This document shows positions 4,935-16,298 of a stretch of 25,366 nt of DNA, in pieces (position 1 is the stretch's first letter; the number at the start of each line of letters is the position of its first letter). The notes under the pieces are model-generated. The model saw only the letters and a list, made by a program, of their open reading frames with translations. It had not been told where the DNA came from and ran no database searches. Origin of the DNA: a virus (taxonomy: Duplodnaviria; Caudoviricetes). The position numbers and the translations under genes were made by a program. The stretch is taken from IMG/VR virus record IMGVR_UViG_3300028633_000382, positions 1 through 25,366 of that record. The stretch is one strand, 5' to 3'.

Positions 4935-5392
4935 CAGATCACCCCCACACGGATGGGACGAGCTTGTCTGGGCTTGAGTTCGTTCAGGCGATCCAGACCG
5001 GCAGGATTGAGATAGGCTTGCAGGATGGTGAGTGCTCTCAGCTCAAGATTGGCTTTGAATGCGTCAATTTCGCTCCCTGTGAGCAGTTCGGTGGCAGACT
5101 GGTCTAATCCTACGGTCTTGACTATTCCCTCCCCCAGGGTCTTTAAATTGAGAAACTCAGCAGTGGAGTGCAGCATCAGGAACGAAAACCCAAAACGAAA
5201 AGAAATCAGGAATGGCTCCTCTTCCGGCATATCTTCGTGAGTTGCCCGATCATAGTGCTCCTGCATAACTAGTGAGTGGATCATCTCCAGAACCAAGCCC
5301 TGATGCTCTTTGAAGATGCCATTGTTGGACATCTCCTTGGGCAGGTTGAGGATGGCGAGCATGGCATCGGTCTCGACCGGGATAGGGATCAC
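4934..5392 (-). CDS. Phage protein, possible head-tail adaptor
   Basis: 152 aa, helical, coupled to the lysozyme and gp10-like genes; function inferred from size and synteny. Confidence 0.4.
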   Translation of the reverse strand: MIPIPVETDAMLAILNLPKEMSNNGIFKEHQGLVLEMIHSLVMQEHYDRATHEDMPEEEPFLISFRFGFSFLMLHSTAEFLNLKTLGEGIVKTVGLDQSATELLTGSEIDAFKANLELRALTILQAYLNPAGLDRLNELKPRQARPIRVGVI

Positions 5393-5814
5393 TGGCCCTT
5401 CCTCATCATCTCGGAAAGCTCAATGGCTCTCATTCCCACTTGCTTCGCCCACTTGGAGGCTAGCATGTTGTTTGCAGCTCGCTCCCAGTCTCCGGCACCG
5501 ATAAAACTCAGGGTGTTCTTGAACTCCAGGAGCCCCTTGATGCCCAAGTTGAAGCACATATTGAGCAGCACCGACTGGCGAACCTCATCGAGCTTATTGT
5601 AAACCTCAGGTATCTCATCAATCAGCCACTGCTCGCAGTCCTGGATATCTCTCTCCAACATGGCATAAGCTTCTTTCTGGGATATCCCCCGATCATCGAG
5701 ATTGCGGCCGATACCGATGGTCAGTTTGCCTGCGGTGCAGCGGTATGGCTTCAGTCGCAGACCCTCATGTCTGACTAACTGAGCCTTGATTCGGTTCATC
5801 AACGCTTCGGTCAT
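5389..5814 (-). CDS. Lysozyme/endolysin, glycoside hydrolase family 24 (T4-lysozyme-like)
   Basis: HEGLRLKPYRCTAGKLTIGIGRNL catalytic region, NMCFNLG, SKWAKQVGMRA. AAGGAG lies 5 nt before ATG 5814, preferred over 5832. Confidence 0.92.
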   Translation of the reverse strand: MTEALMNRIKAQLVRHEGLRLKPYRCTAGKLTIGIGRNLDDRGISQKEAYAMLERDIQDCEQWLIDEIPEVYNKLDEVRQSVLLNMCFNLGIKGLLEFKNTLSFIGAGDWERAANNMLASKWAKQVGMRAIELSEMMRKGQ

Positions 5815-5879
5815 GCTTTCTCCTTGTTCCATATGTGATCATTGATCCAGAGCCAGGAAAGCACTACCCTGTATGCTGA

Positions 5880-5908
5880 CAAATCAGGATGAGCAAGGAT
5901 GAGACAGT
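5880..5908 (-). promoter_or_regulatory. 29-bp motif upstream of the lysis/structural operon (copy 1 of 2)
   Basis: CAAATCAGGATGAGCAAGGATGAGACAGT; 25/29 identical to 18765-18793; internal direct repeat AGGATGAG at 10-bp spacing. Confidence 0.7.
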
Positions 5909-5916
5909 TTTTAGGA

Positions 5917-5952
5917 TTGACAGAAATCAACGCTGCATATCCTTGCTAAAAT
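5917..5952 (+). promoter_or_regulatory. Candidate sigma70 promoter of the defence cassette
   Basis: TTGACA at 5917-5922 and an extended -10 TGcTAAAAT at 5944-5952. The two are too far apart to be one canonical promoter; either could be the functional element. Confidence 0.4.
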
Positions 5953-6141
5953 AGAAATTCACACTGTGAGGGATAGGTGAGACAAATCAGTGAATATACG
6001 AGCAAAGCCTTGGAAGACAGGCTGTTGATTGCTGATGACAAGGAGCAATTGATGTTATGTTGCGCTTCTTTGTGCCAACATGAGTGTCTTTGTATGAACA
6101 AGCTGTCGAAACAGAAGTATTTGGATTATAAGAGGTAATCA

Positions 6142-9100
6142 ATGTCTGGTGATTTAACTTTTCTAACCAATGAAGCCAATCGTAGTCTCTTGCGGCGACT
6201 AGAAGTGTTAATGGCAAGCACCCAGTTTTTTGATTGCCTGGTGGGTTACTTTTTTGTGAGTGGTTTTTATAAGCTATACAAATCGCTTGAGCATGTAGAG
6301 AAAGTCAGAATACTTGTTGGCTTAAGTACGGATAAGAACACGTATAACCTCATTCAACAATCAAAAGAGCAAAGCGAAATTCCACTGATGTCTCAGGCGC
6401 AAATAATTGAAAAGGCACCTGATGCTATTCTTGATGAGTTGGAACACTCTGATGATTCTGTTGATGTTGAAGAGGGTGTCACCAAGTTTATTGAGTGGCT
6501 AAAATCTGGTAAGCTTGAGATAAGATCATATCCAGATGAAAGAATCCATGCTAAAGTATATGTAATGTCTTTCGTTAGTGGAGACAGAGATGCTGGTAGG
6601 GTGATAACAGGATCGAGCAACTTGACTCAGTCTGGATTAAGAGATAATCTGGAGTTCAATGTCGAACTTAAGAGTAGAGCTGATTATGATTACGCAAAAG
6701 AAAAATTTGAAGAGCTATGGCAAAAAGCTACTGATCTTTCAATAACATATGATGATACAATAAGAAACAAATCTCCTTTTGCTCAATTTACTCCATACGA
6801 ATTATACCTGAAATTTTTATATGAATACTTCAAGGAAGAGCTTAACCTACCAGACAATCTTGAGGATATTTATGTCCCAGAAGGGTTTATTAAACTAAAA
6901 TATCAAGAAGATGCTGTAGTAAGTGCCAAAAAAGTTTTAGAAGAGTACGGCGGGTTGTTTCTATCAGACGTTGTGGGGCTAGGAAAAACCTATATGTCTG
7001 CTTTGTTAGCACAGCAACTTGATGGGAGATCATTAGTAATAGCTCCTCCTCATCTTCTTGATAAGAATAATCGTGGGTCGTGGCCTAATGTTTTTGGAGA
7101 CTTTAGAGTTCCACACACAGACTTTGAATCAATCGGAAAACTTGAATCTATTCTCTCTCGGGATGTATCGAAATACAAGAATATATTCATTGATGAATCT
7201 CACAGATTCAGAACAGAGATGAACCAGACTTACGCAATGTTAGCACAGATTTGTCGTGGTAAGCGTGTTATCTTAGTTTCTGCTACACCTTTGAATAACT
7301 CGCCGGACGACATTCTCAGCCAGATGAAGCTGTTTCAAAATGGGAAAAACAGCACTATACCCAATGTCAGAAACTTAGAAGCTTTCTTTTCTCACTTAAA
7401 GAAGAAGCTCCAGGGCTTGGATCGAAAGACTGATAGGGATGAATATATTCGAATTGTTCAGGAAAATGCTGCCCAAACGAGAAACTACATCCTAAAGTAC
7501 TTGATGGTGCGAAGAACGCGGAATGACATCATCAAATACTATGCAGATGACCTCAAATCACAAGGGCTCACTTTTCCCAAGGTTGCCGATCCTGAGCCTC
7601 TATTCTATCAATTTAATGCTACAGAAAATGCAATATTCCTCGACACAATGAAGATAATCACCCAGTCCTTTGTATATGCTAGGTATCGTCCACTTACCTA
7701 CTATAAAGGTGATGTGGATCATAGGGATATACAGGGTCAGAGAAACTTGACCAAGTTTATGAAAATTCTACTAATCAAACGCTTGGAAAGCAGCTTCTAT
7801 GCTTTTAAGCTTACTATTGATCGCTTTCTAAAGTCCTACGAGAGGGTCATCAAGGAGTTTGAGAAGGGTCATGTTTACATAAGTAAGAAGCATATCACGA
7901 AAATCTTCGAGTTGTTAGATGCAGCCGATTACGACACAATAGAGAAATACCTTGAAGCTGATAAAGCAATTAAGCTTGATGCGAAGGATTTCCATCCCGA
8001 TTTTATCAAGCATCTGAAAAGTGACTTAGCGACACTAGAAGATATTCAAAAAACGTGGGCTACATTAACTCATGATCCCAAATGGGAGACATTCGCAGAT
8101 GTGCTAAAAGTAGATAAACATATAAACAAGTCAAAAGCAATCATCTTCACCGAATCAAAAGAAACTGCTGAGTATCTATTCAATAGAATAAGCAAAGAAA
8201 TAGACCCCAAAGCTCTCTTATTCTCCGGATCATCCAGTGAGTTACATCGTAAAGAAGTTATTTCGAATTTCGATGCAAAGGCCTATGATCCAAAAGATGA
8301 CTATCGTATCCTGATCACAACTGAGGTGTTATCTGAGGGAATAAACCTTCACAGATCTAACATTGTGATCAATTATGACATTCCTTGGAACCCAACCCGG
8401 CTGATTCAAAGAGTAGGGCGTATCAATCGTGTGGATACAGCGTTCAAAGAGATTTATACATACAATTTTTTCCCCACAGAAGAATGTAATGACGCCATTA
8501 AGCTCAAAGAGGCAGCAGAAGCTAAGATACACGCTTTTATAGAGATGCTTGGCAATGATGCTCGATTGCTAACTGATGGTGAAGAAGTCAAGTCTCACGA
8601 TCTATTTGCAAAGCTAAATTCGAAACAGACCATTACTGGGGAACAAGAAGAGGAAGATAGTGAACTTGAGTATCTAACGGAAATCAGAAAGATCAGAGAC
8701 GAAAACCCCGATCTGTTTACGAGAATTAAAAGACTTCCCAAAAAAGCACGCTCAACAAAGCTAATGCTGTCTCAAGGAAGTAAACACAATCTGGAGTTAC
8801 CCGGACTTCTAACATACTTTAGGCAGGGAAGACTGGATAAGTTCTTTGTTAGTACGATTGCGAGCAAAGACTCCTTGGAGTTAGATTTCTTCCAATCTGT
8901 ACGCATACTAAAACCTGATGACGTAAATGAAAATAGGAAAGATATCCCATTGCACTTCTATGAAATGCTAGCCAAAAACAAATCTGCGTTCGAATTTGCT
9001 ACCAGTATCGAATCTGAAGAGCAAATGCAGAGTCATAAAGGTAATACCAATGAAGTATATATTACCAAGAGGCTAAAATCTAATGAAGTCAAGAAGTATC

Positions 9101-9354
9101 ACGGTTTCACTGATATTGAGGATGACTATATAACCTCAGTGATAAAACTTCTTAATGATGGAGCATTGCCCAAACACACTGCGAAAAAGATAGCAGACAA
9201 GCTTAAGAATGAGGCAGACCCTTTGAAGATACTCGGTATCCTTAAGTCAAATATCTCACCAGACTTCTTTAATCCAGTTATAGCAAAAGACGCTTCTCAA
9301 GCGTTTAAACCGCGTGAAGTAATTCTATCATCATATCTTTTGGAGGGTAAATGA
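6142..9354 (+). CDS. PLD-family nuclease fused to an SF2 (SNF2/Res-like) helicase
   Basis: HAKVY...GSSNLT.SG...NLE PLD motif; Walker A DVVGLGKT; DESH; SAT; EGINL; YDIPWNP; QRVGRINR. Confidence 0.9.
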   Translation: MSGDLTFLTNEANRSLLRRLEVLMASTQFFDCLVGYFFVSGFYKLYKSLEHVEKVRILVGLSTDKNTYNLIQQSKEQSEIPLMSQAQIIEKAPDAILDELEHSDDSVDVEEGVTKFIEWLKSGKLEIRSYPDERIHAKVYVMSFVSGDRDAGRVITGSSNLTQSGLRDNLEFNVELKSRADYDYAKEKFEELWQKATDLSITYDDTIRNKSPFAQFTPYELYLKFLYEYFKEELNLPDNLEDIYVPEGFIKLKYQEDAVVSAKKVLEEYGGLFLSDVVGLGKTYMSALLAQQLDGRSLVIAPPHLLDKNNRGSWPNVFGDFRVPHTDFESIGKLESILSRDVSKYKNIFIDESHRFRTEMNQTYAMLAQICRGKRVILVSATPLNNSPDDILSQMKLFQNGKNSTIPNVRNLEAFFSHLKKKLQGLDRKTDRDEYIRIVQENAAQTRNYILKYLMVRRTRNDIIKYYADDLKSQGLTFPKVADPEPLFYQFNATENAIFLDTMKIITQSFVYARYRPLTYYKGDVDHRDIQGQRNLTKFMKILLIKRLESSFYAFKLTIDRFLKSYERVIKEFEKGHVYISKKHITKIFELLDAADYDTIEKYLEADKAIKLDAKDFHPDFIKHLKSDLATLEDIQKTWATLTHDPKWETFADVLKVDKHINKSKAIIFTESKETAEYLFNRISKEIDPKALLFSGSSSELHRKEVISNFDAKAYDPKDDYRILITTEVLSEGINLHRSNIVINYDIPWNPTRLIQRVGRINRVDTAFKEIYTYNFFPTEECNDAIKLKEAAEAKIHAFIEMLGNDARLLTDGEEVKSHDLFAKLNSKQTITGEQEEEDSELEYLTEIRKIRDENPDLFTRIKRLPKKARSTKLMLSQGSKHNLELPGLLTYFRQGRLDKFFVSTIASKDSLELDFFQSVRILKPDDVNENRKDIPLHFYEMLAKNKSAFEFATSIESEEQMQSHKGNTNEVYITKRLKSNEVKKYHGFTDIEDDYITSVIKLLNDGALPKHTAKKIADKLKNEADPLKILGILKSNISPDFFNPVIAKDASQAFKPREVILSSYLLEGK

Positions 9355-12300
9355 CTAAGCAACAGTCTTATGAGTTAATTAAAACCACATTTACACAATC
9401 GTTTGATAAAGACAGATTTGCTCATTTTGTCAATGAGCTGCTAAATGGTTATGATCAATCGAAAGCAACTTCTTATACTGGTCAGATGGTGAAGCATGCC
9501 TTCAAAGAACATGTGAATCATTGCCATCGATTAGGCACTTATACGACTCCTCAGAAAGAAACTATCGATATCCTTACAGTTCATCTTACCAAGGACAGCA
9601 AACTTGAGAAAGCACGAACAGCGATAAGAAACTATGTAGCTTATCACCTTGACCAACATGGGAAAGATGCTGCATTGGTTGCGTTTGTTTCTCCCTCAGA
9701 AAAGCAGTGGAGATTCTCCTATGTGAAGCTTGAGTACAAAACCGTCACCAAAGATTCCGGTAAGATAGCTACTGATACATCCTTGACCCCCGCTCGGCGT
9801 TTTTCATACATTGTGGGGGAGGGAGAAAGCTGTCACACGGCACAAACTCGTTTTGTTGGATTATTGGAAAACACGCTACTAAAACCAAGTATCGAAGACA
9901 TTCAAGAATCATTCAGTGTGGAGACAGTTACAAAAGAGTTCTTTAATCAGTATGTAGTGCTGTTTAAGAGATTCTGCAGCGCTTTAGAATCAATAGTTAA
10001 AAAAGATTCAAACCTGCATAACGAGATTCAAAGGAAAAACATAAATCAAGTAGAGTTCGTAAAAAAACTCATGGGACAGATAGTATTCCTCTATTTTTTG
10101 CAACGCAAGGGATGGTTAGGCGTCCCCAAGGGTTCGAACTGGGGAGAAGGCCCCAAGGACTTTCTAAGAAAGCTTGCAAACAAAGAATATGTAGATTATG
10201 TTAATTTTCACAACGATGTGCTTCAACCTTTATTCTATGATACTTTAGCAACTGATCGTGGTCATGAAGCATGGTCTAAAATACTCAACTGCAGAATACC
10301 ATTTTTAAATGGTGGCCTCTTTGAACCGATGGGAGATTTCGATTGGAAACGCAACCCCATATCGCTGCCCAACAACCTGTTTAGTAATTCTACATATATT
10401 GACGAGCATGTTTATGGAACTGGGATACTCGACGTATTTGATCGATACAATTTTACTGTGAATGAAGCCGAACCACTAGAAAAAGAAGTTGCCATTGATC
10501 CTGAAATGCTTGGAAAGATATTCGAGAGCCTGATTGAAGAGAATCAGCGCAAAGGGCAGGGAGCTTTTTATACTCCAAGAGAAATTGTACATTTTATGTG
10601 TCAAGAGAGCTTAATCAATTACCTTGATAGTCAATTAAACAAGACAGCTGTAACGGTAAACAGAGACGATATAGTAACATTTATTCAGATTGGGGACCAT
10701 GCTGCTTTCTATGAGGCAGCCAGACTTTCCGGATACAGTAGTTACCTTCAAGAAATACCAGATAGCATTATAAACAATGCCAGGATCATTGATGACAAGC
10801 TAACCACAATAACTGTTTGTGATCCAGCGGTAGGTTCAGGAGCATTCCCCGTAGGTATGATGAAGGAAATAGTACGATGCCGCAGTGCTTTAACACCATA
10901 TTTTAATGATGTGCATGACAGGACTCCCTACAATTTCAAGCGCCATGCTATTCAAAGTAGCTTGTACGGAGCTGATATAGATCTTGGGGCAGTAGAAATA
11001 GCTAAGCTCAGATTATGGTTATCCTTAGTAGTTGACGAAGAGAACGTACAGCAGATTAAACCTTTACCTAATCTTGATTACAAGATAGTTGCTGGCAATT
11101 CGCTAATTGGTATTGAGATAGATGCTCTTAATGACTACATGACCGTACAAATCGAAAAAGAGAAAGACTCTTTATTCGATGAAACAGATGCAGATAAAAA
11201 GGCTGAACACAAAAAGACCATTGACGTTTTGATTAACACACTAACCCATGGGATGAAAGTTTTCGATTTCGAGCTATTTTTCTCCGAGGTGTTTCATAAA
11301 AAAGATGGTTTTGACGTGATAATAGCTAATCCTCCCTATGTAAAAGAACAGGGTCACAAAGAGATATTCAGGGAAGTCAAGAAGGGCAAACTACGCAAGT
11401 TTTACAATGGTAAAATGGACTTGTTCTACTTCTTCTTTCACCTGGCATTAAACTTAACAGCCGATAATGGGTCCATTGCATTCATTACTACGAATTATTT
11501 TCCCACAGCAACGGGGGCATCGGTATTGAGATCTGACTTTTTCAATAGAGCGTGTTTCTTGCGCTTAATAAATTTTTATGAACTCAAGATTTTTGAATCA
11601 GCTCTTGGGCAGCACAATATGGTGAGTATTTTAAAAAAGGCTTTCAATCCTACTGTGGTCTGTAATACCTGTATTACGCGGAGGAGGGGCATAGCAACCC
11701 CGGAAATCTTAAAAAACATCTTTTCTGGCACAGATAAAGAAACCGTTTATCATTCCATCCCACAGAAGAATTTATACGATGGCGAAGAGCACTATATCCG
11801 ATTAGAAAGCGATATTATGTTGTCGGGCGTCAATATCCATAGTATATTGACAAAACTGCAAAGAACGAGTGTTACGTTAGGGAGTGTGTGCCAAGTAAAC
11901 CAAGGAATAGTAAGTGGTTGTGATAGTGTTTCAAATAGAAATATGGATGCAATTTATGATACTGAAGTACAAAGAGGTGATGGAGTATTCGTTTTTGATT
12001 TAAACAACTCACGTGATCAAACGGTTATCTCATCATTCAACGAAGCAGAAAACGCACTGTTGAAACAATTCTTTAAGAATTCAAATATAGGGAAATATGT
12101 TTGCCATGATACTACGCCAAGGAAGATACTCTATCTGGACAGGAACGTCATGTCATTGGCCGATTTACCTAATATAAACAGACACTTATGCAAATTCGAG
12201 GATGTTTTGAACCAACGCAGAGAGGTTGTTAATGGGGTAATTTCTTATTTTCAACTGCAATGGCCTAGATCTATAGATATTTTTACTAGTCCTAAAATCG

Positions 12301-12767
12301 TGGTCCCTCAAAGATCCAGAAGAAATACATTTGCATATAATGAGGACGAATGGTTTAGTAGTGCAGATTGTTACTTCATTACGAAGGCAAACTATAACAT
12401 CAGCCTTAAATACGTTCTTGCGCTTCTGAACAGTAAAGTCTACTACATCTGGCTATATCATAAGGGCAAAAGGAAAGGCGAATTGCTCGAATTGTATGCA
12501 AAACCTCTTTCAGAAATCCCCATCAAACTTATTTCTCCAGAAGATCAGGAATTGTTTATCGAGTTAGTCGATGAGATTATACTAAGTAAGCAGGACGATT
12601 CTTCTGCTGATACATCCTCACTCGAAAATGAGATCGATCAATTAGTATACAAGCTATATGATTTTTCTCAAGAGGAGATTGATTTCGTGGAAAATGAGTA
12701 TCAACAGAAGATTGCAATTAGCATGAATGATTCGATTATTGCGGACTCAACAGAAGAGGATTTATAA
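9351..12767 (+). CDS. Eco57I/type IIG-like N6-adenine DNA methyltransferase with C-terminal TaqI-like target-recognition domain
   Basis: PFLNGGLF, LGKIFESL, GAFYTPREIV, DPAVGSGAF (SAM motif I), NPPY (motif IV), and C-terminal PKIVVP...LALLNS...IPIK...IDQLVYKLY. Start overlaps the helicase stop (ATGA). Confidence 0.9.
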   Translation: MTKQQSYELIKTTFTQSFDKDRFAHFVNELLNGYDQSKATSYTGQMVKHAFKEHVNHCHRLGTYTTPQKETIDILTVHLTKDSKLEKARTAIRNYVAYHLDQHGKDAALVAFVSPSEKQWRFSYVKLEYKTVTKDSGKIATDTSLTPARRFSYIVGEGESCHTAQTRFVGLLENTLLKPSIEDIQESFSVETVTKEFFNQYVVLFKRFCSALESIVKKDSNLHNEIQRKNINQVEFVKKLMGQIVFLYFLQRKGWLGVPKGSNWGEGPKDFLRKLANKEYVDYVNFHNDVLQPLFYDTLATDRGHEAWSKILNCRIPFLNGGLFEPMGDFDWKRNPISLPNNLFSNSTYIDEHVYGTGILDVFDRYNFTVNEAEPLEKEVAIDPEMLGKIFESLIEENQRKGQGAFYTPREIVHFMCQESLINYLDSQLNKTAVTVNRDDIVTFIQIGDHAAFYEAARLSGYSSYLQEIPDSIINNARIIDDKLTTITVCDPAVGSGAFPVGMMKEIVRCRSALTPYFNDVHDRTPYNFKRHAIQSSLYGADIDLGAVEIAKLRLWLSLVVDEENVQQIKPLPNLDYKIVAGNSLIGIEIDALNDYMTVQIEKEKDSLFDETDADKKAEHKKTIDVLINTLTHGMKVFDFELFFSEVFHKKDGFDVIIANPPYVKEQGHKEIFREVKKGKLRKFYNGKMDLFYFFFHLALNLTADNGSIAFITTNYFPTATGASVLRSDFFNRACFLRLINFYELKIFESALGQHNMVSILKKAFNPTVVCNTCITRRRGIATPEILKNIFSGTDKETVYHSIPQKNLYDGEEHYIRLESDIMLSGVNIHSILTKLQRTSVTLGSVCQVNQGIVSGCDSVSNRNMDAIYDTEVQRGDGVFVFDLNNSRDQTVISSFNEAENALLKQFFKNSNIGKYVCHDTTPRKILYLDRNVMSLADLPNINRHLCKFEDVLNQRREVVNGVISYFQLQWPRSIDIFTSPKIVVPQRSRRNTFAYNEDEWFSSADCYFITKANYNISLKYVLALLNSKVYYIWLYHKGKRKGELLELYAKPLSEIPIKLISPEDQELFIELVDEIILSKQDDSSADTSSLENEIDQLVYKLYDFSQEEIDFVENEYQQKIAISMNDSIIADSTEEDL

Positions 12768-12769
12768 CA

Positions 12770-13678
12770 ATGGCAAGTTCTGAGTGCCCAATATGTAAAG
12801 CGGACAACATAACGCTCGCAGCGCATAGTGGTGGAGCTGATAGATCGGTTATTGTTTGCCCTAACTGCGGGCGGTATGAGATTTCGGGTACAGCATACGC
12901 TACTTTCAGTAATAAAGTGAAAGACGCAAAACTCTCATTCGCAATCAGAACAAGGTTTTATAGAGATGAGCATGTTTATGTTAGCGCATCAAATAGGGAG
13001 GAGATATTGGCTGGCATCTTTGTTCCTGTTAAAGTCAAAGACATTGCAGAATTGGTTTTAGTTAAAGTCTTCACTGATGAAGATAACATATCTAAGGAGT
13101 TGGCGCTTTCAATGGAGAACGCTCTTCAGTTTGGTATTGAAAACGATACTAAAATGCAAATGGTACTAAATTACATTGAGAGCAAAGGTTGGTTCAAACT
13201 ACTTAGATTTTCTGGCGGTGGTGCGCATTTATCTTTAACTGGGGAAGGTATAAGTCATGCTGAGGACATTATAAACCCAAATTATGAATCAAAACAGGTT
13301 TTCGTAGCCATGTCGTTCAACCCTGAGTTAGATACATTATACTCCGATGCTATTCAAGAAGCTGTTAAGCACTGCCATCTAACTGCGTTAAGAAGCAAAG
13401 ACTTTGATTTTAACGATGAAGTAATCAAGAATATACAACTCCAAATAGACAGTAGTAGATTTGTAATTGCTGACTTCACAGACAATAGACCAGGTGTGTA
13501 TTACGAGGCTGGATATGCCACTGGTCGATATATTCCGGTTATATACTGCTGTAGGGAGAGCGACAAAGTGAACATACACTTTGACATAGACCACTTCAAT
13601 TTTATCTTCTGGAGTGACCTGGAAGGCTTGAAGAGTGATCTAATTAAGCGTATTACAAATACTAACCTATCAGGCTAG
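12770..13678 (+). CDS. Zn-ribbon + winged-helix-like + nucleoside 2-deoxyribosyltransferase (NDT)-like domain protein
   Basis: CPIC...CPNC at the N-terminus; LNYIESKGWF...LSLTGEG wHTH-like segment; C-terminal QVFVAMSF...SRFVIADFTDNRPGVYYEAGYA with the NDT-type catalytic Glu. Confidence 0.75.
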   Translation: MASSECPICKADNITLAAHSGGADRSVIVCPNCGRYEISGTAYATFSNKVKDAKLSFAIRTRFYRDEHVYVSASNREEILAGIFVPVKVKDIAELVLVKVFTDEDNISKELALSMENALQFGIENDTKMQMVLNYIESKGWFKLLRFSGGGAHLSLTGEGISHAEDIINPNYESKQVFVAMSFNPELDTLYSDAIQEAVKHCHLTALRSKDFDFNDEVIKNIQLQIDSSRFVIADFTDNRPGVYYEAGYATGRYIPVIYCCRESDKVNIHFDIDHFNFIFWSDLEGLKSDLIKRITNTNLSG

Positions 13679-13708
13679 TCAAATAATACAATTGGATGAG
13701 GAGTTAAA

Positions 13709-14152
13709 ATGGAGAGAACCGATCTGATTCTGCACGAATCTCCAGCTGTAATCAAGCACTTGGAGATTTTGCAAGGGATTATATCAAGAATGGCAGGAAA
13801 TAGTGCATCTTGCAAAACATGGGCTTTAACAATCATCACAGGCATAATTGCCTTTTCGATTCAAAATCAAAGTATACCAATCTGGACTAGCCTTATCCCA
13901 GCTATTATGTTCCTTGCACTGGATGTTTTTTACCTTGGATTGGAAATCAAGTTCAGGGACTTGCAGAAAGTATTCGTTCAAAAGTTATCCTCAAATACGC
14001 TTACTCCTGGTGACATTTATATGTTCGAAAATGACAGTTCATCCCACATTCACCTTAAATACATTTGGGGTGGTATTAGGTCATTTTCTACCTCATTCTT
14101 CTATTTTCCTATTGTAACGCTAATTGCTGTGTTGTGGATTATTGGTTTCTGA
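13709..14152 (+). CDS. Small multi-pass membrane protein (3 predicted TM helices), candidate effector of the adjacent TIR proteins
   Basis: GAGGAG RBS; amphipathic HLEILQGIISRMAGNS helix; hydrophobic segments WALTIITGIIAFSI, IWTSLIPAIMFLALDVFYLGL, FFYFPIVTLIAVLWIIGF. Confidence 0.7.
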   Translation: MERTDLILHESPAVIKHLEILQGIISRMAGNSASCKTWALTIITGIIAFSIQNQSIPIWTSLIPAIMFLALDVFYLGLEIKFRDLQKVFVQKLSSNTLTPGDIYMFENDSSSHIHLKYIWGGIRSFSTSFFYFPIVTLIAVLWIIGF

Positions 14153-14168
14153 TTCCAGGGAGATAAAC

Positions 14169-14657
14169 ATGCCTAAAAGACAAGTATTTTACAGCTTTCA
14201 CTATGCTAATGACGTTTTTAGAGTACAGCTTATTAGGAACATTGGTGTTATCGAAGATAATAAGCCCGTTTCAGAGAATAGTTGGGAGGATGTGAAGAGA
14301 AAGGGGGATGAAGGCATAAAGAAATGGATTAATGACAATATGTACTACCGCTCATGTGTTATAGTTCTTATCGGAGCAGAAACAGCTACCCGCAAATGGG
14401 TCAGGTATGAAATTAAAAAGGCATGGGTAGACAAAAAAGGGTTGCTGGGTATCTATATTCATAACCTGAATTGTCCTAGAAACGGAACATGCTCGAAGGG
14501 AGATAATCCTTTTGACCATTTTACCTTTCAAGATGGAACTAAACTATCAAGCAAAGTGAAATGCTATAATCCCAATCCTAATGCTCCATACAAAGATATC
14601 AGAGACAATCTGGAAGCATGGGTTGAAGAAGCCATTCAAGCTTCATATAGGAGGTGA
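14169..14657 (+). CDS. thsB: ThsB-like TIR-domain protein (MTH538/DUF1863 type), 162 aa
   Basis: AGGGAG RBS before ATG 14169; RQVFYSFHY..D, IKKWI, SCVIVLIGAETATRKWVRYEI (catalytic Glu), GLLGIYIH. Confidence 0.85.
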   Translation: MPKRQVFYSFHYANDVFRVQLIRNIGVIEDNKPVSENSWEDVKRKGDEGIKKWINDNMYYRSCVIVLIGAETATRKWVRYEIKKAWVDKKGLLGIYIHNLNCPRNGTCSKGDNPFDHFTFQDGTKLSSKVKCYNPNPNAPYKDIRDNLEAWVEEAIQASYRR

Positions 14658-15415
14658 TGGTGTATAGAGGATTTAACGTAAAAAATATTACGTTTAATGG
14701 CAATTATATTGATATTGGATTGCACCAACAAAAACAATATAAAACAATCATAGATAAAACTCTGGATAGCTTCATACTTGACAGTGGTAATTTGGACGGA
14801 TCGAAAATGCAGAGTGACTGGTTTCCAACAATTGATGCTGATATCTTTGTCTCTCATTCTCATAAAAATATGGATTTAGCATTAAGTTTTGCCGGTTGGT
14901 TAAAAGATAGGTTTGGTTTATCAACTTTTATTGACTCAAGTGTTTGGGGTTATTCCAATGATTTACTAAAGAAAATTGACGATAAATACTGCACAAGAAT
15001 AACAGATGGTCTTTATGATTACGAAAAACTAAAAGCTTCTTCAAGTCATGTTCACATGATGCTCGCTAGTGCACTAACAATGATGATTAATAAAGCAGAA
15101 TGCTTGTTCTTCTTGAACACCCCTAGTTCCTTATCTGTAGATAATATTAAGCAAAAAACAATGTCACCTTGGATATATTTTGAGTTAACGACTAGCAGGT
15201 TTATCAGAAAACCTATTCCAGAAAGGAGAATTCAAAAGGTAATAACAGAAGCATACGCTATCATCAAAAAAGCTGAATTGAACATAGAATACACAGTTGA
15301 TTTTTCGGACTTTATCACATTAGGTGCAGATGAACTCAAAGCGTGGTCTAACGGTATTGGCATAAAAGGGATTGAAACTTTAGATAAATTGTATGAGCTA
15401 CATCCTTTACACTAA
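14654..15415 (+). CDS. Second, divergent TIR-domain protein (true start may be 14657 or 14660)
   Basis: DIFVSHSHKN, LSTFIDS, ECLFFLNTPSS, SPWIYFEL (catalytic Glu); AGGAGG RBS at 14649-14654 overlapping the end of the first TIR gene. Confidence 0.82.
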   Translation: MMVYRGFNVKNITFNGNYIDIGLHQQKQYKTIIDKTLDSFILDSGNLDGSKMQSDWFPTIDADIFVSHSHKNMDLALSFAGWLKDRFGLSTFIDSSVWGYSNDLLKKIDDKYCTRITDGLYDYEKLKASSSHVHMMLASALTMMINKAECLFFLNTPSSLSVDNIKQKTMSPWIYFELTTSRFIRKPIPERRIQKVITEAYAIIKKAELNIEYTVDFSDFITLGADELKAWSNGIGIKGIETLDKLYELHPLH

Positions 15416-15422
15416 TCTTTAA

Positions 15423-16298
15423 TTAGACTATTGTAGTCGTCGTCCTGCACTTCCAATGAAATGGTGGGAACGGAGTATGTGCTCCAGATACGCCTACCGG
15501 GTTCATCTCTGAGTCGTATTCGATCTGATCGTCTTTGATCCAGGGTGCGAGTGCTTTGATGTAGTCTCTGGCATCATCCAGGCTGCTGGATTTGGTATCC
15601 AGAGCCATGAGATTATCCATCACTTCGATTGCATCGTTTAGGGGATAGATCTTATCCTGGGCAGCCAGTGCCCGGCAGATGTCACTGGTGCGGTCATCCA
15701 GGATCACCACGAGCTTGTAGTATCTGGCTTTGGCTTTCTTGTATCCCTGCAGCCTTCCGAACTCTCTGATTCTGAGTGCTGTGTGCTCAGCCAGTCCTTG
15801 CCAGTAGCTGGATGATCTATTGGCAATGTCATTGAACTGGTCTTTGAGAGTCTTGGCAAGCATCTCTTTGGTATAACCTTGCTCAATAGCTTTGGAGAGG
15901 GTATCTGCGAAGTTCTGACGTACATCAGCCTCGAAGTGATTCCCGATCCAGAACAACTGCTGCTTCTGAATGGTGGATGAGAGATGTTGATCTTCAATGC
16001 CCCAGAGTCCGATTGATGTCTTGGATGGTGCTTGCACTTGGGTGTCTCTCAGACCGAGACGCACACAGCGGTCTATTATCGCTTTGGTGGGCTCATTGAC
16101 CAGTGCTGCGAAGTCATCTCCCAACTGAGTATTGATGATGCCCATAAGCTTATCTATGGAGTCCTTGTTGAGCTTCTCGGCTCTTGGCATGTCACTCAGC
16201 ATCTGGATGGCAAGCCTGGCAGCATCCTTGATCTCGGTCTTCCAGGCATTATTGAGAACCCGGTAATAATCAAGCATGAGCTTATCGTAGTAGTTCAT
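15423..16298 (-). CDS. Phage head morphogenesis protein (Mu gpF / SPP1 gp7 family)
   Basis: ILDDRTSDICRAL and the C-terminal PPFHWKCRTT signature. Confidence 0.88.
   Translation of the reverse strand: MNYYDKLMLDYYRVLNNAWKTEIKDAARLAIQMLSDMPRAEKLNKDSIDKLMGIINTQLGDDFAALVNEPTKAIIDRCVRLGLRDTQVQAPSKTSIGLWGIEDQHLSSTIQKQQLFWIGNHFEADVRQNFADTLSKAIEQGYTKEMLAKTLKDQFNDIANRSSSYWQGLAEHTALRIREFGRLQGYKKAKARYYKLVVILDDRTSDICRALAAQDKIYPLNDAIEVMDNLMALDTKSSSLDDARDYIKALAPWIKDDQIEYDSEMNPVGVSGAHTPFPPFHWKCRTTTTIV

Follow-up and report, generated by a model that had tools for sequence, protein, structure and literature searches.

A probable two-TIR type V Thoeris module in the variable defence slot of a Mu-like phage

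Does a compact operon of two different TIR genes and one minimal membrane protein gene form an undescribed antiphage system, or is it a version of a Thoeris type that has already been verified? The question is raised by a linear IMG/VR virus record (IMGVR_UViG_3300028633_000382), of which the stretch of 25 366 nucleotides analysed here is called the window. The record is that of a Mu-like phage and includes genes for a Mu transposase, an S24 repressor, MuF and a lysozyme. A block at ~6142-15415, bounded by the lysozyme and MuF genes, has a GC content of 0.35-0.40 against ~0.50 for the flanking phage genes. It is read on the + strand, antiparallel to the flanking structural genes, and encodes six proteins: a PLD/SNF2 helicase, a type IIG restriction-modification (RM) enzyme, a zinc-ribbon/NDT-like protein, a membrane protein of 147 aa and two TIR proteins (TIR1 and TIR2). 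The features of the region are as follows.

5389..5832, - strand: phage lysozyme (Pfam PF00959), left edge of the variable defence slot
6142..9354, + strand: PLD-nuclease/SNF2 helicase, leading gene of the low-GC cassette (profile matches, GC content)
9351..12767, + strand: type IIG restriction-modification enzyme (PADLOC E 6e-215)
12770..13678, + strand: zinc-ribbon + NDT-like protein, 302 aa, same-strand neighbour of the module
13709..14152, + strand: three-helix membrane protein, 147 aa, PADLOC PDC-M50A, likely ThsF-type effector
14169..14657, + strand: TIR1, ThsB/DUF1863-type, 162 aa, likely signal synthase (Pfam, PADLOC, PDB)
14657..15415, + strand: TIR2, second ThsB subfamily, ~252 aa, likely exchangeable sensor/synthase (PADLOC ThsB PDLC00430)
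14677..15421, no strand: segment divergent in the close relative G009 (DNA identity ~57-68% across TIR2)
15423..16298, - strand: phage MuF (Pfam PF04233), right edge of the variable defence slot

The host is probably a Cloacimonadota bacterium, since the membrane protein has its nearest genomic relatives in Cloacimonadota assemblies and a 100% identical copy (genome G009) occurs in the Cloacimonadota sample. A promoter scan returned 28 sites for a chance expectation of 28.5. A promoter-like 10/12 match at 13581-13608, 5' of the membrane gene, was therefore not taken as evidence of a promoter.

Hydrophobic segments of the membrane protein were located at approximately residues 37-53, 59-78 and 126-147 (Kyte-Doolittle peaks 1.5, 1.7 and 2.2), the first being only moderately hydrophobic. 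The AlphaFold2 model (pLDDT 93) is all-helical, with two long helices, a C-terminal helix and no beta strands. Both results bear out an earlier note on this DNA, which had described a 147-aa protein with three transmembrane segments. The protein itself had no match in Pfam or NCBIfam. Foldseek gave no match to the model at E <= 0.001, and the best PDB sequence match obtained with the family profile reached only E ~0.9. The ESM Atlas returned unnamed clusters only, with 8xMP as a sub-threshold lead (0.87). The best VIA matches to the model (Z up to 8.9) were generic helical bundles and ESCRT-III-like hairpins, and they were judged uninformative.

The family of this protein is very large (4,639 clusters at 50% identity, E <= 0.001). 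When the centre of each sample is included, 7 of the 301 Bacteroidota genomes sampled had a member, as did 5 of the 201 from Pseudomonadota and 11 of the 201 from Cloacimonadota. Once five already known loci had been excluded, 20 family loci remained from these phylum samples, and 12 of them had a TIR gene within ~1.5 kb. Plasmid copies of the membrane gene adjoin TIR genes in E. coli, in Vibrio and in three of the four Bacillaceae records examined, and a Bacillus thuringiensis protein (P0308) is a member of the family. Ten residues are 93-99% conserved among 268 members (Gln22, Arg27, Asn31, Ser32, Lys36, Trp38, Asp72, Glu79, Ser125 and Tyr132), and in the sequence they group where the membrane segments begin or end. 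Gln22, Arg27, Asn31, Ser32, Lys36, Asp72 and Glu79 are candidate residues for an inter-subunit pocket that would take up the signal. Such a pocket would make a separate ligand-binding domain unnecessary in an effector of 147 aa. Another member, P0043, is a fusion protein of 438 aa in which a SLOG cluster 3 domain (Pfam E 2e-27) precedes the three-helix effector domain; this is possibly an effector with an added nucleotide-binding domain. Copies with no TIR within 1.5 kb were seen in cyanobacteria (L020, L021, L026, L030-L032, L036, L040, L054), Dehalococcoidia (L012, L016, L024, L033, L064) and Alphaproteobacteria (L041, L045, L056-L058). These may be orphans or may be partnered with a distant TIR.

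The most likely start of TIR1 is the ATG at 14169, which has a GGGAG site upstream and lies 16 bp from the membrane gene. TIR1 matched the Pfam family ThsB_TIR (PF08937, E 6e-26) and the PADLOC models ThsB (E 3e-73) and PDC-M50B (E 6e-64). In the PDB, it matched 8WCF (E 3e-57), which we take to be E. coli ThsB, and 9B7D/6LHY (E 3e-20), 6LHY being presumably the type I ThsB of B. cereus; the alignment spans the WVRYEI motif. Nothing relevant was found in the literature on PDB entry 8WCF. TIR1 carries Phe7 and Glu81 (WVRYEI), and this Glu is kept in 23 of 24 aligned sequences. The start of TIR2 overlaps the stop of TIR1 (TGATG). TIR2 has an N-terminal extension of ~60 aa, and its Phe64 and Glu176 (WIYFEL) are invariant in 18 of 18 aligned sequences. 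It matched the PADLOC ThsB model PDLC00430 (E 4e-74); Pfam and NCBIfam gave no match for TIR2 itself. No significant similarity between TIR1 and TIR2 was detected by BLAST (best E 3.2). The TIR2 model has a TIR-like order of strands and helices, with Glu176 on the helix that follows the third core strand. Foldseek gave no significant match to this model, and the PDB profile search returned only TIR proteins, all weakly (E 0.2-0.4). The earlier note was thus right that the first TIR is of the ThsB/DUF1863 type, that the second is unrelated to it with an overlapping start, and that both retain the catalytic Glu. It had also reported no SIR2-SLOG, macro or caspase domain in the cassette, and profile searches of the six cassette proteins with SIR2, SLOG, macro and caspase families agreed, giving no match. 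None of the effectors of Thoeris types I-IV (SIR2-SLOG, TM-macro, SLOG, caspase-like) is present among these six proteins.

The earlier note considered the operon the best candidate in the window for an undescribed system and allowed that a recent catalogue might already name it. PADLOC-DB 2.0.0 does hold a candidate, PDC-M50, made of adjacent PDC-M50A and PDC-M50B, and the same adjacent pair is found in the window. The membrane protein matched four PDC-M50A models (best E 1e-23), TIR1 is ThsB/PDC-M50B and TIR2 is ThsB. This assignment rests on PADLOC profile matches and adjacency, not on the PADLOC rule file. Unlike PDC-M50, the window has TIR2 as an extra ThsB-family TIR. No paper text naming PDC-M50 was found in the literature. 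The available text of another catalogue (PMC11350192) lists TIR-I to TIR-IX, one membrane-containing system among them. The module also shares with type VII Thoeris (ThsB and the SLATT effector ThsH, cADPR) a TIR beside a small membrane effector with no classical ligand domain; unlike ThsH, the window protein has no SLATT match.

A closer counterpart is type V Thoeris (ThsB and ThsF), verified in a preprint (Yirmiya et al., December 2025, bioRxiv, 10.64898/2025.12.03.692087). The available text of the preprint reports the verification of seven new Thoeris types and lists 29 putative ones, mostly untested, with 'a variety' of effectors that have membrane helices. ThsF is described there as a protein with three membrane helices and a DUF2270 annotation, for which a heptameric ring was modelled that has positively charged pockets at its subunit interfaces. 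ThsF of a B. thuringiensis system was activated by 3'cADPR; a second Bacillus type V system was unresponsive. According to the same text, type V occurs in ~1.2% of genomes with an enrichment in Bacteroidota, and DUF2270-linked TIRs cluster with type I and type IV TIRs. Literature searches on ThsF/Thoeris and on DUF2270 found no paper beyond this preprint.

The link of the window protein to DUF2270 was examined with profiles. The protein itself did not match Pfam DUF2270 (PF10028) even at E <= 1. Among 129 family members, DUF2270 was the commonest Pfam match, seen for 17 at E <= 1 with a best E of 9e-4; other weak matches were 8xMP (6 of 129) and SLATT_6 (1 of 129, E 0.008). Small membrane families besides this one, such as 8xMP, might also have been annotated DUF2270. 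A canonical DUF2270 profile was built from 83 proteins and ranked against 2,923 sequences. Its top 50 non-canonical matches included 45 family members, several of which are identical copies of the window protein, for a background of 9.6%. In the reverse search with the family profile, canonical DUF2270 made up 30 of the top 40 non-family matches. Profile-profile comparison of the two families gave a weak similarity (probability 15-22%, E ~1e-3, 37-39 columns) and failed in global mode. Its score of 26 exceeds those of 40 column shuffles (18 at most) and of the reversed profile (14), and its register places Trp38 and Asp72 on a Trp and a Glu of DUF2270. From these comparisons, the membrane protein appears to be a remote relative of DUF2270. 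Canonical DUF2270 itself was rejected as the TIR partner: none of its 10 loci, which include some from related genomes, had a TIR neighbour. Canonical DUF2270 and the membrane-protein family were found in 1 and 7 (one being the sample centre) of 301 Bacteroidota genomes, and in 9 and 5 of 201 Pseudomonadota genomes, respectively. Within these samples, the TIR-linked DUF2270-like family is therefore that of the window protein and not the canonical one, a TIR being present at 12 of 20 loci for the former and at 0 of 10 for the latter.

Compared with ThsF by its published description, the family is quite probably the ThsF of the preprint. With type V Thoeris, as far as it is described in the available text, the module shares a ThsB TIR with the catalytic Glu beside a three-membrane-helix effector, a probable remote link to DUF2270, the lack of a classical ligand domain, a similar frequency and an occurrence in Bacillus and Bacteroidota. 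It differs from type V by its two TIR genes, although multi-ThsB islands are described in the preprint, by an effector with no direct Pfam DUF2270 match, and by being phage-borne in Cloacimonadota. The module is a real, intact two-TIR Thoeris, and we consider it likely that it is of type V and acts via cyclic ADP-ribose on the membrane protein. Observed directly were the set of genes, the catalytic Glu of each TIR, the pairing of effector and TIR across the family, and the divergence of TIR2 in an otherwise near-identical relative. Phage infection would activate a TIR, which would then make a cyclic ADP-ribose isomer, likely 3'cADPR, from NAD+. This signal would bind the small membrane protein, predicted to form a ring-shaped oligomer. 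The ring would then cause membrane damage, or growth arrest or death of the infected cell. The two TIRs would be parallel sensors of different phage cues; that multiple TIRs broaden phage recognition is cited in the available texts of PMC13069673 and 10.64898/2026.01.22.701046. The cassette would be cargo of a Mu-like temperate phage, the lysogen being protected against other phages.

The module is probably not an undescribed system, because PDC-M50 is in PADLOC and type V, with its three-helix DUF2270 effector, has been verified. The Thoeris-like reading of the earlier note keeps two of its parts, the small membrane protein as effector and signal binding with no classical ligand domain, and loses the claim of novelty. 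As a probable type V copy and a PADLOC candidate already, the module adds little that is new in kind.

The alternative that survives best places the membrane protein in a sister family of Thoeris effectors, not ThsF (equivalent to PDC-M50), that possibly reads another ADP-ribose-derived signal. It draws on the missing direct Pfam DUF2270 match and the weak profile similarity, and the putative types in the available preprint text, mostly untested and including various effectors with membrane helices, leave room for such a family. The three helices, the DUF2270 link, a presence in ~2% of genomes and an occurrence in Bacillus and Bacteroidota nevertheless fit ThsF as published, and the linkage to TIR genes is found here and is absent for canonical DUF2270. 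We therefore regard a sister family as unlikely. A wider version combines several departures: an untested, abundant Thoeris effector other than ThsF would read another NAD+-derived signal through a pocket formed by Arg27, Lys36, Asp72 and Glu79, TIR2 would be swapped like the target-recognition domains of restriction enzymes, and the NDT-like neighbour would modify the signal. This combination appears improbable.

The partners of the effector were examined at 67 GTDB loci fetched via the membrane-protein family, TIRs being called within 1.5 kb at strict thresholds. A TIR was found at 38 loci and none at 29, and the count favours near genes because the TIR seeds were taken from direct neighbours. 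Eleven loci have the TIR1 family without TIR2, eight have the TIR2 family without TIR1, two have both and 17 have other TIRs only. An iterative search showed a TIR2-family gene at four of the 29 TIR-less loci. Among close relatives, TIR1 is absent in L006 and L108. In L007 (5464-5948), TIR1 is split into frames of 99 and 71 aa, and the effector and TIR2 are intact. Neither TIR is therefore obligatory for the family, single-TIR loci being frequent. In the effector tree (61 of the 67 homologues), 23 changes of TIR partner were counted, for a possible minimum of 4 and a mean of 32.5 after shuffling; the deep forks of this tree are unreliable because the branches are long. Across these loci the effector does pair with TIRs, and the two TIR families stand together at just two of 67.

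TIR2 was the variable gene in the comparison with the nearest relatives. Between G009 and the window, protein identity is 99% for the NDT-like protein, 100% for the effector, 100% for TIR1 and 57% for TIR2. At the DNA level, there is one mismatch over 13530-14676, followed by ~57-68% identity up to the MuF gene. The comparison of the window with G010 gave 95-98% identity for the catalytic half of TIR2 and ~55-65% for its start and for the effector gene. TIR2 looks like a recombining module, likely swapped between otherwise near-identical copies. Its 57% identity beside an unchanged effector and TIR1 in G009 suggests an exchangeable sensor. The type IIG gene also has a stretch near its end (11943-12279, C-terminal in the enzyme) strongly divergent from G009 (L115), with flanks 85-100% identical, which is likely a swapped target-recognition region.

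The earlier note had proposed a TIR-to-TIR relay or a TIR as receptor gating a pore. In an obligate relay, a phage protein would be sensed by TIR2, and TIR1, recruited or activated by TIR2, would alone make the signal. A precedent is the S. aureus type I system ThsA-B1-B2 which, in the available text of PMC12578639, also has two different TIRs and one effector. ThsB1 is the TIR that binds the capsid protein, and it activates ThsB2, so that TIR cooperation is already published; Phe6 and Glu81 of the short TIR, ThsB2, are needed and the Glu of ThsB1 is dispensable. Phe7 and Glu81 of TIR1 resemble this pair, and TIR2 is the variable gene. The S. aureus effector is a SIR2 NADase, of which the cassette has none. 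An obligate relay is nonetheless hard to reconcile with the single-TIR versions, which are common (TIR1 family alone at 11 loci, TIR2 family alone at 8), with the loss of TIR1 in L006 and L108 and its split in L007, with a TIR1 that stays 100% identical beside a 57% identical TIR2 in G009, and with the invariant Glu of TIR2 (18 of 18). A TIR as obligatory receptor is likewise disfavoured, because at many loci the effector stands with only one of the two TIR families, whichever it is, or with TIRs of another kind. Together, these two proposals are very improbable. Conditional cooperation of TIR1 and TIR2 could still occur; if true, it would not be new in kind, such a relay being already published for type I (PMC12578639, available text). 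The G009/window allele pair, with the same effector and TIR1 and a different TIR2, offers a clean test of parallel sensors against a relay.

The zinc-ribbon/NDT-like protein was also weighed as a working part of the module, be it signal receptor, converter or second effector. A CMP hydrolase annotation of the type VIII Thoeris effector presumably denotes the NDT fold. That annotation is given in the available text of the preprint (10.64898/2025.12.03.692087). In four Cloacimonadota genomes, the membrane gene is immediately preceded by an NDT-like gene (35-99% identity to the window protein), and in L214 and L154 such a gene precedes a different pair, made of another membrane protein and a ThsB. 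However, 22 matches were found in 20 of 201 Cloacimonadota genomes, with the gene directly 5' of a window-type effector in only four and 5' of the different membrane-protein/ThsB pair in one. No close homologue was found directly upstream of the effector in 64 loci besides L005-L007. In the phage slot, the gene accompanies the other pair in L154, L187 and L192 and occurs without Thoeris genes in L190 and L194. Pfam gave no TPR match in the protein. A working role in the module is thus hardly credible, and the obligatory receptor suggested by the earlier note is disfavoured. The gene is most likely independent defence cargo, and there is a small chance that it is an accessory of the Thoeris module. 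In L107 (372-1920), a kinase-like N-terminus (recognised by eye) is joined to an NDT-like C-terminus 5' of an effector-family gene, and no TIR was present in the 1.5 kb fetched on each side.

In Mu-like phages of Cloacimonadota, the lysozyme-MuF interval (window 5832-15423) is a hypervariable defence slot. It was sampled with the best 80 of 232 IMG/VR relatives of MuF (92-100% identical, loci L118-L197). Of these best 80, 35 span MuF to lysozyme, with at least 24 cargo layouts, and the module was found in only 2. A PADLOC match at E <= 1e-20 was obtained for 50 of 93 representative slot proteins (from 151 clusters) and none for 43. The matches include type I, II, IIG and III restriction-modification, BREX, SIR2-HerA, Old/Gabija-like, PD-Lambda-2, PDC-M71, PDC-S06, PDC-S18 and another ThsB. 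The defence role of the cassette is supported by this context, since the cargo of the slot matches PADLOC defence models. The slot is also a good hunting ground for undescribed defence systems, because at least 24 layouts occur and many genes match no PADLOC model. A second Thoeris-like module was observed in the slot in L154 (10359-14935), also in L187 and L192, with a similar one in L214. It comprises a radical-SAM-like gene, an NDT-like gene, a membrane protein of 255 aa with no Pfam match and a ThsB TIR. The 255-aa protein may be a type X ion-channel effector.
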